IMG/VR virus record: IMGVR_UViG_3300045918_000348 | Location: 1 to 57,271 of that record | Reading direction: 5' to 3' (one strand) | DNA from: a virus | DNA length: 57,271 nt | Shown here: positions 8,571-10,755 of the stretch, piece by piece | Position numbering within the stretch: position 1 is the stretch's first letter | Layout: every line of letters starts with the position of its first letter | Made by a program: the position numbers and the translations under genes | The notes under the pieces: generated by a model | Told to the model about the DNA's origin: nothing | The model's input: the letters and a program-made list of their open reading frames with translations, nothing else | Databases searched by the model: none

Positions 8571-8798
8571 TTGAAGTTTTTAATTTTCTTTATCTTAAAT
8601 AATATGGTATATGCTGATACATCATCAGCTACACTTCAACTTACATTTAATGTTCCTATTGTATGTATAATTAAAAACAGTAAGCCAAACTGCAACTTAA
8701 ATCTGCAACAATTGTCAACAACTAAGTGGATTGACTTAGATGGCCATTATGAAGTATACTTAATTAATAACCAATTAACTGTTATAACTTTGAACTAA
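8571..8798 (+). CDS. small secreted protein (TTG start, 75 aa)
   Basis: GGAGG SD 5 nt upstream of the TTG. Signal-like MKFLIFFILNNMVYA followed by DTSS. Confidence 0.5.
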   Translation: MKFLIFFILNNMVYADTSSATLQLTFNVPIVCIIKNSKPNCNLNLQQLSTTKWIDLDGHYEVYLINNQLTVITLN

Positions 8799-8813
8799 AC
8801 GGAAGGTTTATAA

Positions 8814-9011
8814 ATGAGAAGGCCGCAAAAACAAAAATGGTCGATGTCTGGGTCGTGGTCGGTGTCGGGGTCGGGGTCGTGGTCGGGGTCGAGGTCGGGG
8901 TCGTGGTCGAGGTCGTGGTCGGGGTCGAGGTCGAGGTCGGGGTCGTGGTCGTGGTCGGGGTCGGGGTCGTGGTCGGGGTCGTGGTCGGGGTCGAAGTCTA
9001 GGTCTACGTAA
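8814..9011 (+). CDS. (X-Ser)n dipeptide-repeat peptide 1 (65 aa; leader MRRPQKQKWS)
   Basis: Conserved GGAAGGTTTATAAATG SD-start and a 10-aa leader shared with two paralogs. Ser occupies every second residue from position 10 to 64; only the final residue (T or K) differs. Confidence 0.6.
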   Translation: MRRPQKQKWSMSGSWSVSGSGSWSGSRSGSWSRSWSGSRSRSGSWSWSGSGSWSGSWSGSKSRST

Positions 9012-9037
9012 CTTTGAACTAAACGGAAGGTTTACAA

Positions 9038-9244
9038 ATGATAATTCAACACGCAAACTTAACTGCAGACATTGCCACTGATATAAAAGGCCACTTTTAC
9101 ATGCGCCTTTTCAACGAACTTACAGGCGAAATAATTGAGTCTCAAGTAACATACGTATCAAAACAAGACATTTATAAATTATTATTGCCTTTTTTCAATT
9201 CCTATAGTAATATACTTATAAGTAATCAAACAATAAACAACTAA
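9038..9244 (+). CDS. hypothetical protein (68 aa)
   Basis: Uses the same junction and SD sequence (GGAAGGTTTACAAATG) as the repeat peptides. Confidence 0.55.
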   Translation: MIIQHANLTADIATDIKGHFYMRLFNELTGEIIESQVTYVSKQDIYKLLLPFFNSYSNILISNQTINN

Positions 9245-9260
9245 CAAAAGGAACATATAA

Positions 9261-9530
9261 ATGAAAAAATTAGTAAAAGTAGAAGAAGTTGCAGGAGAAG
9301 GTTTTATTGCTTTACTGGGTCAAACAGTAACTTTATTTTGTATGAATTATATTTATGCAGGAACTTTAGTTGGTGTTAATGATGAGTTTATTAAACTTGA
9401 AAATGGCCACATTGTATATGAGACTGGCTCGTTTACTGAAACTAAATTTAAAGATGCTCAGAAAGTATCAAGTGAACTTTATATTATTAAATCATCAGTT
9501 GAAAGTTTTGCAGTAACTAAACAATTATAG
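9261..9530 (+). CDS. hypothetical protein (89 aa)
   Basis: AAAGGAAC SD-like sequence upstream; ordinary composition. Confidence 0.6.
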   Translation: MKKLVKVEEVAGEGFIALLGQTVTLFCMNYIYAGTLVGVNDEFIKLENGHIVYETGSFTETKFKDAQKVSSELYIIKSSVESFAVTKQL

Positions 9531-9542
9531 GAAGGTTTATAA

Positions 9543-9740
9543 ATGAGAAGGCCGCAAAAACAAAAATGGTCGTGGTCGGGGTCGAGGTCGGGGTCGGGGT
9601 CGTGGTCGGGGTCGAGGTCGATGTCGAGGTCGGGGTCGATGTCGAGGTCGGGGTCGATATCGATGTCGGGGTCGATGTCGATGTCGATGTCGATGTCGGG
9701 GTCGGGGTCGATGTCGATGTCGAGGTCGTGGTCTAAGTAA
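9543..9740 (+). CDS. (X-Ser)n dipeptide-repeat peptide 2 (65 aa)
   Basis: Same SD and leader as peptide 1. X is drawn from W, G, R, M and I, and the C-terminal half is Met-rich. Confidence 0.6.
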   Translation: MRRPQKQKWSWSGSRSGSGSWSGSRSMSRSGSMSRSGSISMSGSMSMSMSMSGSGSMSMSRSWSK

Positions 9741-9766
9741 CTTTAAACTAAACGGAAGGTTTATAA

Positions 9767-10036
9767 ATGAGAAGGCCGCAAAAACAAAAATGGTCGTGGT
9801 CGGGGTCGAGGTCGGGGTCGAGGTCGTGGTCGGGGTCGAGGTCGGGGTCGAGGTCGTGGTCGGGGTCGAGGTCGGGGTCGGGGTCGATGTCGATGTCGGG
9901 GTCGATATCGATGTCGGGGTCGTGGTCGGGGTCGGGGTCGGGGTCGGGGTCGATGTCGAGGTCGGGGTCGAGGTCGGGGTCGGGGTCGATGTCGATGTCG
10001 ATGTCGATGTCGATGTCGGGGTCGTGGTCTACATGA
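9767..10036 (+). CDS. (X-Ser)n dipeptide-repeat peptide 3 (89 aa)
   Basis: Same SD and leader. Its TGA stop overlaps the protease ATG (ATGA at 10033..10036). Confidence 0.6.
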   Translation: MRRPQKQKWSWSGSRSGSRSWSGSRSGSRSWSGSRSGSGSMSMSGSISMSGSWSGSGSGSGSMSRSGSRSGSGSMSMSMSMSMSGSWST

Positions 10037-10755
10037 AAACTTTAAAGTACATAATACTCATCCTAATATTAGTCCTAACAATGGTATACTGGCAAATTGC
10101 AGTCAATGCCGCGCCAATACCTGCAGCAAAGGGCCAACTTACAGTAGCCATACTAGATACAGGTCTAAATTTAAACTGGCATCAAGCAACTCATCTTTGC
10201 AAAACTGGACACCGAAACTTTACTAATGAAGGGTCACCACTCGACCCCACTGACAAAAATGAATATCGTCATGGTTCAAATATAACAGCCCTGATTGAGA
10301 GGGAGGCAAAAGATGCTAAATACTGTATCGTCATAGTTAAAGTTATAAGTTCAACCTCAACTGTCATTGACTATTTGCAAGGTTTACTATATACTTTAAA
10401 AATGAATCCAGATTTTATTAATATATCACTTAATGGTGAATATCCAAATCAAGTTGAGAAGTTGTTAATTAAAATGTTACTTAATAATGGTGTTAAAATA
10501 ATTGTAGCTGCAGGTAATGATTCGAGAGACCTTACGAAAAAATGTAAAGCGTTCCCTGCATGTTTAGATTCGCGTCTAGTTGTGGTCGGCAATAGAGATA
10601 ATTTAGATTCAAATCTAGGGGGACCCATAGACGTTCTTGAAAATGGTGTTAACCAATTAGGTGCTGGAGTAAGTTTGTCAGGGACGTCGCAGGCCACAGC
10701 AATACATACAGGAAAACTTATATTACAACAATGGTTGAAAGGTGGTAAAAAATGA
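10033..10755 (+). CDS. secreted subtilisin-like serine protease (peptidase S8)
   Basis: Signal peptide MKTLKYIILILILVLTMVYWQIAVNA. Catalytic motifs AILDTG (Asp), HGSNITA (His) and GTSQATA (Ser). The track ORF 9790..10755 extends upstream only because the hexamer array is open in every frame. Confidence 0.85.
   Translation: MKTLKYIILILILVLTMVYWQIAVNAAPIPAAKGQLTVAILDTGLNLNWHQATHLCKTGHRNFTNEGSPLDPTDKNEYRHGSNITALIEREAKDAKYCIVIVKVISSTSTVIDYLQGLLYTLKMNPDFINISLNGEYPNQVEKLLIKMLLNNGVKIIVAAGNDSRDLTKKCKAFPACLDSRLVVVGNRDNLDSNLGGPIDVLENGVNQLGAGVSLSGTSQATAIHTGKLILQQWLKGGKK

Follow-up and report, generated by a model that had tools for sequence, protein, structure and literature searches.

Serine-repeat minigenes in a 57-kb phage genome belong to a widespread two-gene module with a predicted Sm-like protein

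The IMG/VR virus record IMGVR_UViG_3300045918_000348, analyzed over its full 57,271 nt (hereafter the window), is an apparently complete phage genome of ~57 kb with a G+C content of 38.3%, in which genes for terminase, portal, major head protein, family A DNA polymerase and a DUF5906 primase/helicase were identified. It carries three small open reading frames (ORFs), here called minigenes 1, 2 and 3, whose products consist almost entirely of (X-Ser)n dipeptide repeats, and the last of which overlaps a gene for a subtilisin-like (S8) protease. The locus raises the question of whether these repeats are kept as peptides or as nucleic acid, and with which gene they act; a first-pass annotation of the sequence had pointed to the protease, by analogy with ribosomally synthesized and post-translationally modified peptides (RiPPs). 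Comparison with relatives showed that the minigenes belong to a widespread phage two-gene module, the constant partner being a gene for a predicted Sm-like protein located just upstream, and that the S8 protease is not conserved with it.

All three minigenes share the leader MRRPQKQKWS, after which serine occupies every second residue, as was evident from both the sequence and the ORF list. The X positions are G, W, R or M, with single occurrences of I, V and K. The array unit in the window is the hexamer TCG-NKG (25 TCG, 11 GGG, 9 TGG and 6 AGG codons in minigene 1), and Tandem Repeats Finder reported 18- and 24-nt super-periods. Array cores had a G+C content of 64–70%, in agreement with the earlier estimate of >60% in an AT-richer genome, and their coding strand was rich in G (GC skew ~+0.5). 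They were also free of stop codons in all six frames, as had been claimed, although a few stops occur in the degenerate end units. The codons used are the rarest of this phage, TCG, GGG and AGG accounting in its long genes for 4.3% of Ser, 8.8% of Gly and 9.0% of Arg codons, respectively.

Each minigene begins 7 nt downstream of GGAAGG, within a shared Shine-Dalgarno (SD)-start region, GGAAGGTTTAYAAATG, found at 8801, 9025, 9530 and 9754 against 0.00 copies expected. The 32-nt junction repeat described as bounding the cassettes was recovered at 9009 and 9738 (0 expected), with its first copy at 8785 rather than 8786, while the “degenerate copy at 9524” proved to be just the 16-nt SD-start region at 9530..9545. 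Duplication, as had been proposed, did take place, the minigenes having been copied along with their translation-initiation region, and minigene 1 is a displaced copy that does not lie directly behind the Sm-like gene. New copies seem to arise through such a duplicated initiation region, as with the junction repeat of the window and with locus L007 (IMG/VR 3300037094_000145). At the latter, the leader (MNACV...) repeats the opening five codons of the gene that follows (MNACVKTG...), and the array is flanked by a 17-bp direct repeat. Exact and degenerate leader patterns had no match in IMG/VR because the leader is too variable, and a megablast search of GenBank phages gave no close DNA relative of the window region at 7–12 kb.

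Relatives were collected by two routes. A hexamer scan of IMG/VR for seven GTCGNK units returned at least 120 stretches, on contigs of 27–71% G+C (mostly 37–70%). Unbiased samples were then based on loci chosen via the upstream proteins and blind to repeat codons, where U1 denotes the family of the Sm-like gene at 9261..9530 and U2 a second small-gene family found upstream of type A minigenes. Two leader types were distinguished, type A (MNAAxLRxG[FY][DE]) and type B (MxRxxKQK[YW]), the window minigenes being type B. An (X-Ser)n minigene was present just downstream in 72/80 U1 loci from IMG/VR, starting from a few to ~100 nt after the U1 stop; the others comprised four on contigs ending too early, two with short remnants and two with none. 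Among U2 loci the minigene was found in 70/79, with short or degenerate copies in five more, and the U2 stop usually overlapped the minigene ATG (ATGA). The leader type followed the U subfamily, KQK[YW] accompanying U1 and MNAAxLRxGFD accompanying U2. Clustering of flanking ORFs from at least 120 array loci and from 83 U1 loci revealed nothing recurrent except the U gene; the first clustering of flanks (minimum 70 aa, E limit 1e-6) missed these small genes, which were found via the upstream ends. The usual neighbors of the module were early, replication and recombination genes, and several arrays were followed by non-coding sequence. Since the minigene lies within a few nt of the U stop, or overlaps it, the two genes are probably co-expressed.

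Reading frame, codon usage and leader were compared across these relatives. Of 107 fully flanked arrays, 55 have a stop in the Ser frame no more than 12 nt past the array end, and 57 have an ATG in that frame in the preceding 75 nt; the corresponding counts for the other two forward frames were 15 and 11 (stop) and 15 and 14 (ATG). The other frames of TCT arrays are interrupted by stops. Each array is built on essentially one Ser codon, and this codon differs between arrays. The U1 sample contained 526 TCT, 412 TCG, 290 TCA, 175 AGC, 52 TCC and 25 AGT codons, and the U2 sample 916 TCG, 322 TCA, 212 AGC and 73 TCT. Relatives ~80% identical in U1 have the leader MRRPQKQKWS or MRRPQKHKWS followed by arrays on TCT-NGG or AGC-NGG. 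As TCN and AGY share only their meaning, selection acts on serine as an amino acid. In the type A leader the invariant Gly is encoded by GGA (16), GGT (12), GGG (10) and GGC (9), and its Arg by all six codons; a leader kept through synonymous change is a translated leader. These comparisons bear out the earlier view of the minigenes as genuine paralogs that encode peptides with a conserved leader, and indicate that the ORFs are selected as peptides, not as DNA. By contrast, the GGTCGN hexamer is not the conserved entity it was taken to be, as same-leader relatives use TCT, AGC or TCA; among homologs the Ser frame is kept and the hexamer changes.

Several other interpretations of the array DNA were considered and rejected. 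In the hexamer-selected sample the unit itself appeared conserved (T97/C96/G99/N/G89/G98%, with 2525 TCG against 9 synonymous codons), which was misleading because that sample was selected on the hexamer itself, and the U-based samples overturned it. Neither the (RG)n frame, considered as an SmD1-like tail, nor the minus-strand (RP)n frame has a consistent start or stop, and both are absent from TCT and AGC arrays. Mutagenesis from A to N at the variable base, of the kind made by diversity-generating retroelements, was considered because a single base per hexamer varies, and was set aside, as each array uses mostly three of the four bases and block duplication suffices.

The U1 protein is ~90 aa long (...NYIYxGKLVGVN...IVYETG...IESFGxLK) and precedes type B minigenes, and the U2 protein is ~115 aa long (...IRTVT...AAWIADTGRF...EVEP...RGxIxDA...LPRSQK). 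Profile–profile comparison with hhalign revealed that the two are homologous (probability 96.8%, E = 2.8e-10). Neither matched a Pfam, PHROG, PADLOC or NCBIfam family. U1 homologs nevertheless filled at least 1275 protein clusters, every one “hypothetical” or unnamed, and more than 600 IMG/VR stretches encode relatives of U1 or U2. Species-representative genomes contained seven U1 relatives, all in metagenome-assembled genomes, and GenBank phages a single one, in an uncultured record. The AlphaFold model of U1, based on 65 family members, had a mean predicted local distance difference test score (pLDDT) of 91.3 and consisted of a short N-terminal helix and a strongly bent five-stranded antiparallel sheet forming a small β-barrel. 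A Foldseek search of the PDB gave Sm/LSm proteins (Lsm1-7, SmF, archaeal Sm and spliceosomal Sm) for nearly all of its 50 best matches, and the exceptions, NatC and Edc3 chains, are themselves of Sm-type fold. Probabilities were 1.00, target-normalized template modeling (TM) scores 0.41–0.80 (mostly 0.6–0.8), and E-values near 1e-3; matches in a viral structure library were mostly to uncharacterized proteins. By eye, and unscored, G-x-L-x-G-V-N...L-E of U1 resembles an Sm1 motif and I-x-R-G-x-I of U2 an Sm2 motif. On the basis of this model, U1 is predicted to be a protein of Sm/LSm fold.

The peptides are compositionally extreme. Among 112 distinct complete peptides from the samples, the median length was 69 aa (interquartile range 59–79) and the composition 41% S, 15.6% G, 14.2% R and 12.0% W, the X positions being G (34.5%), R (30%) and W (28%). 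The median net charge was +11, and X residues followed each other in near-random order with a modest excess of R-G alternation. Cysteine, hydrophobic segments and signal peptides were absent from the peptides. Most loci had one copy and a few had two, three or six, placing the three of the window at the high end. Arrays grow and shrink by whole hexamer units while codons stay uniform within an array: loci L008 and L076, with flanks 90% identical, have 23 and 17 units, respectively. The narrow length range on such unstable DNA argues for selection on the product, which maintains the alternating serines and about equal shares of G, W and R.

Taken together, these observations led us to favor a composite reading, to which we assign a probability of about 0.4. 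The minigenes would be translated genes for intrinsically disordered peptides, each comprising a short basic leader (M-R-x-x-K-Q-K-W/Y) and ~25–40 Ser-X dipeptides, that form a two-gene module with the Sm-like protein, the S8 protease being an incidental neighbor in this phage. The leader would dock the peptide onto the Sm-like protein, and the peptide would supply in trans a multivalent cationic, aromatic low-complexity tail; eukaryotic SmB/D1/D3, LSm4 and LSm14 offer an analogy, their RG/RGG tails being present in cis. Early in infection, the resulting complex may bind RNA or single-stranded DNA, chaperone it or sequester it. The descriptive half of this reading is much more certain than the mechanistic half.

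A number of points weigh against it. The Sm assignment comes from a predicted structure with Foldseek E-values near 1e-3, and U1 and U2 matched neither Pfam LSM, Hfq nor any other profile. Co-variation of leader type and U subfamily could simply reflect co-inheritance, and minigene 1 of the window is set apart from U1. Finally, the X codons are almost universally NGG (532 GGG, 407 TGG, 278 AGG and 153 CGG in the U1 sample, against 15 GGA plus GGT), which could point to an extra constraint at the RNA level. This bias is not a codon preference, because the leaders of the same peptides use all four Gly codons. The simplest account is that codons are copied with whole units, the single Trp codon acting as an anchor from which Gly and Arg are one first-position change away; such a Trp-anchored, homogenizing array explains the bias equally well.

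A more ambitious version of the composite reading is possible but doubtful. The module, carried by phages of many lineages, would be a split ribonucleoprotein, in which an Sm-like ring and separately encoded, fast-evolving Trp/Arg/Gly-Ser “sticker and spacer” peptides, docking via their leader, form multivalent nucleic-acid-binding assemblies or condensates. Such an arrangement might be the prokaryotic-virus counterpart of the chemistry of Sm/LSm proteins and RG tails in eukaryotic ribonucleoprotein granules. In a variant, the Trp-rich peptides would serve as hooks that disable host nucleic-acid-guided defence.

The hook idea can also be taken without the assembly. In that case the peptide would itself be the effector, either a membrane-active or toxic Trp/Arg-rich peptide or an anti-defence decoy mimicking a GW/WG “Argonaute hook”, and the Sm-like protein would chaperone or neutralize it. 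Peptides of the (RW)n type have antimicrobial activity, and the PIWI domains of Argonautes are bound by GW/WG repeats within disordered G/S-rich regions, which plant-virus silencing suppressors exploit. The peptides combine 12% Trp and 14% Arg with Ser/Gly-rich disorder and a net charge of +11, and they resemble GW/WG hooks in composition only, W, always between Ser residues, accounting for 28% of the X positions of a peptide rich in G and S. Their length, held at 59–79 aa despite unstable DNA, and the one to six copies per locus would also suit an effector. However, Trp-binding pockets are not established in prokaryotic Argonautes, the peptides have no hydrophobic segment and no export signal, and PADLOC gave no match. 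An effector role would also leave the predicted Sm fold of the partner unexplained, and we consider it unlikely.

It is quite unlikely that the arrays act as nucleic acid with translation being incidental, whether as U1 binding sites in the manner of TRAP or Hfq, as G-quadruplexes, as R-loop origins or as iterons. In favor of such a role, all arrays have a GG every 6 nt regardless of which Ser codon they use, a gene for a predicted fold that typically binds RNA always adjoins, and the module is located in replication and recombination regions. Nevertheless, the bases between the GG pairs always spell Ser, through TCN or AGY codons that have no base in common, and start, stop and leader are preserved as expected of a peptide. 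The G-quadruplexes suggested earlier are indeed predicted in the G-rich window arrays, but none was predicted in the TCT and AGC arrays of three relatives. RNA folding z-scores ranged from unstructured sequence to long hairpins and were not conserved among TCG, TCT and AGC arrays, and Rfam gave no match. The iteron proposal fares no better, as the 6-bp period is unsuited to iterons, the DNA unit differs among close relatives (TCG, TCT, AGC) and only the position of the arrays supports it. A secondary role at the RNA level, needing GG every 6 nt, may exist alongside the peptides.

Two further explanations tie the minigenes to the gene that follows them, and both are improbable. According to the first, the minigenes are RiPP-like precursors, with the co-transcribed S8 subtilisin cleaving off the leader and the Ser-rich core possibly being modified. 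The identification of the protease stood, with a Pfam match to PF00082 Peptidase_S8 (32.8 bits against a cutoff of 21.8), a PHROG protease match and, by eye, DTG, HGS and GTS motifs and a hydrophobic N-terminus; PADLOC gave no match to it. The stop of minigene 3 overlaps its ATG as described. A conserved leader with a repetitive core in several tandem copies is what RiPP precursors would look like, and the best NCBIfam match of the protease was QhpE, a small leader-peptidase-type subtilisin, at 36 bits, far below the cutoff of 165. One relative has a gene of trypsin-like type behind the minigene and another has ClpP in the vicinity, while most loci have no protease.

Nevertheless, arrays and protease do not travel together, and the proposed LanP-type logic is not supported. 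Of the 44 S8 homologs in a large protein collection, the closest (45% identity) is encoded on a 57,246-bp contig, L001, that is syntenic with the window and has, in order, the DUF5906 helicase, three small genes and S8. L001 contains neither a tandem repeat nor a Ser-repeat ORF over 20 kb, and no U1; a homologous phage with the protease but without arrays is the outcome that the first-pass annotation had named as refuting its proposal. The second S8 context, L002, is of the same kind; conversely, nearly all array loci lack S8. An IMG/VR scan anchored on the S8 gene gave no match. No recurrent family of proteases or modifying enzymes was found among the at least 120 array loci, nor any protease cluster among the 83 U1 loci; some 160 array-bearing loci were likewise free of a recurrent protease. 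No match of YcaO, LanB/M or radical-SAM type was seen among the proteins scanned, the window neighbors included. The protease has a signal peptide that the peptides lack, and the peptides have no Cys.

The second explanation, about as improbable, is that a minigene is a cis-acting regulatory upstream ORF whose rare codons sense the supply of tRNA or amino acids and gate the next gene by translational coupling. The codons TCG, GGG and AGG are the rarest synonymous ones of this phage, and stop/start overlap with the next gene occurs in the window and at loci L007, L008 and L076. Against this, relatives use the common Ser codons TCT and TCA, the downstream genes are unrelated between phages and several arrays precede non-coding sequence; a conserved leader and a held length would also be needless. 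The weakest explanation, that the arrays are an assembly artefact or a functionless selfish microsatellite, is suggested by the assemblies they break, by one GenBank record with an adapter beside an array and by rapid shifts in unit number, and is very improbable given the equivalent arrays in hundreds of independent assemblies (JGI, ENA, Logan and GenBank) with conserved frame, leader, Ser, composition and length.

Many viral contigs stop ~100–400 nt after the U gene, inside the array (L133, L136, L153, L156, L161, L168, L180, L189, L193, L196, L226, L227, L235, L245, L247, L248, L255 and others). The module is probably under-counted, because repeats break short-read assemblies. Gene calls across arrays also went astray. 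In the window, JGI called the S8 gene from 9790 (9790..10755, 321 aa), reading array 3 in the Val frame, and in L124 a 188-aa minus-strand ORF was called across the array of a relative (5188..5754, minus strand). In L128 (GenBank MW202825.1), U1 and the first minigene were left uncalled, and an Illumina adapter follows directly after the second minigene.

The features of the cassette are listed in Table 1. The 68-aa ORF between minigene 1 and U1 is unrelated to U1, had no Pfam or PHROG match and only a weak TIR-TM match in PADLOC, and was not kept upstream of U1 in the relatives examined; neither it nor the cassette ORF at 8535..8798 is U-like.

Table 1. Features of the minigene cassette and its surroundings in the window.
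Feature	Position	Strand	Remarks
Copy of the 22-nt intergenic motif	8538..8559	+	Next copy at 11585
Junction repeat, copy 1 (TAACTTTGAACTAAACGGAAGGTTTATAAATG)	8785..8816	+	Exact match; includes SD GGAAGG and minigene 1 ATG
Minigene 1, 65 aa	8814..9011	+	MRRPQKQKWS, then (X-Ser)n with X = G, W or R
Junction repeat, copy 2	9009..9040	+	Its SD-start region drives an unrelated 68-aa ORF
68-aa ORF between minigene 1 and U1	9038..9244	+	Outside the conserved module
U1, 89 aa, predicted Sm/LSm-fold protein	9261..9530	+	Conserved partner of the minigenes
Minigene 2, 65 aa	9543..9740	+	Canonical position, 12 nt past the U1 stop; Met-rich tail
Junction repeat, copy 3, separating minigenes 2 and 3	9738..9769	+	
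Minigene 3, 89 aa	9767..10036	+	TGA overlaps the S8 ATG (ATGA, 10033..10036)
Small secreted-type subtilisin (S8), 240 aa	10033..10755	+	Neighbor here, not a conserved module member

The 22-nt motif (CCAGTKGGCCC-N-RAAA-TTTTT) has eight copies in the window against 0.02 expected, at 1407, 2822, 8538, 11585, 13148, 55008, 55260 (minus strand) and 56842, every one intergenic and in the early region. The block containing the minigenes, U1 and the S8 gene lies between the copies at 8538 and 11585. The motif is a candidate phage-specific promoter or regulatory box and may mark the start of the transcription unit of the module. Other repeats were also found. Both ends of the window consist of ~5 perfect copies of an identical 26-bp unit (1..127 and 57136..57271), which suggests a circular or terminally redundant assembly joined inside a tandem array of ~10 units. 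A perfect 21-bp repeat of 4.1 copies (919..1005) lies within the minus-strand ORF 482..1132, and a 47-bp repeat of 2.5 copies (98% matches; 54478..54594) covers the 5′ end of the minus-strand ORF 53969..54487 and the sequence upstream of it. A repeat protein, probably secreted or on the surface, is encoded by the ORF at 12695..13063; its N-terminus resembles that of a lipoprotein (...LSAC), and the chain includes collagen-like GQQGxQG triplets and a stretch of (NGS)n encoded by a 9-bp repeat.

The module is common, occurring in phages of 37% to 70% G+C, and annotation has been blind to it through the lack of a Pfam or PHROG family, calls in the wrong frame or on the wrong strand, uncalled genes in GenBank and assembly breaks. 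It pairs a very well conserved small protein of predicted Sm fold with compositionally extreme peptides (41% Ser, 12% Trp), and the conserved partner and the narrow peptide length on unstable DNA imply a role early in infection that is general and under strong selection. If the two act jointly on RNA or DNA, the module would be a new phage device for host takeover or genome management, and a natural case of a low-complexity tail supplied in trans. The arrays are in addition a clean example of concerted evolution: codon choice does not vary inside an array but is unconstrained from one array to the next, and the single Trp codon anchors it to NGG.

A search of the literature and of family libraries found neither the peptides nor the pair of Sm-like protein and peptide, which agrees with the initial impression that no described phage system matches. 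Among known systems, eukaryotic SmB, SmD1, SmD3, LSm4 and LSm14 likewise combine an Sm-fold core with a cationic, Gly-rich, repetitive disordered segment, and the +1 frame of the TCG arrays in the window reads (RG)n, recalling Sm tails, which the AGC and TCT arrays do not. In the phage module, however, the repeat is a separate, downstream-encoded peptide that alternates with Ser and contains 12% Trp, and the U proteins do not belong to Pfam LSM. Hfq and the Sm-like proteins of bacteria or phages are small five-stranded β-barrels of Sm type, as U1 is predicted to be. Some Hfq proteins carry repetitive Gly-rich C-terminal extensions, and we know of no companion peptide gene for Hfq. U1 differs from Hfq in its conserved residues and in lacking an Hfq or LSM profile match. 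TRAP and the trp leader resemble the module in placing an oligomer-forming small β protein beside RNA with a motif every 5–6 nt, whereas the spacers here always encode Ser in a fixed frame and the predicted fold is that of Sm, not TRAP.

Other likenesses lie in the peptides. The Ser-Asp repeats of staphylococcal Clf/Sdr proteins also have Ser at every second residue, tens of repeats and rapid length change, and minigene 3 gave weak low-complexity matches, far below cutoff, to ClfA/B and SdrC/D models. Here, by contrast, G, W or R stands where Asp would be, which reverses the charge. The products are free peptides of 60–90 aa without LPXTG or signal peptide, and no SdgA/B-type glycosyltransferase is encoded nearby. 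The RS domains of SR proteins and the SR regions of viral nucleocapsids share alternating Arg-Ser in a disordered basic segment, but X is only ~30% Arg in the minigene peptides, the chain has no RNA recognition motif or other folded domain, and there is no kinase context. RiPP systems with LanP or QhpE match the window in leader, repetitive core, several copies and a downstream S8 gene, and differ in that the protease here is not co-conserved and is secreted while the peptides are not, with neither a modifying enzyme nor Cys. Known systems share single features only with the pairing of Sm-like gene and serine-repeat minigene.

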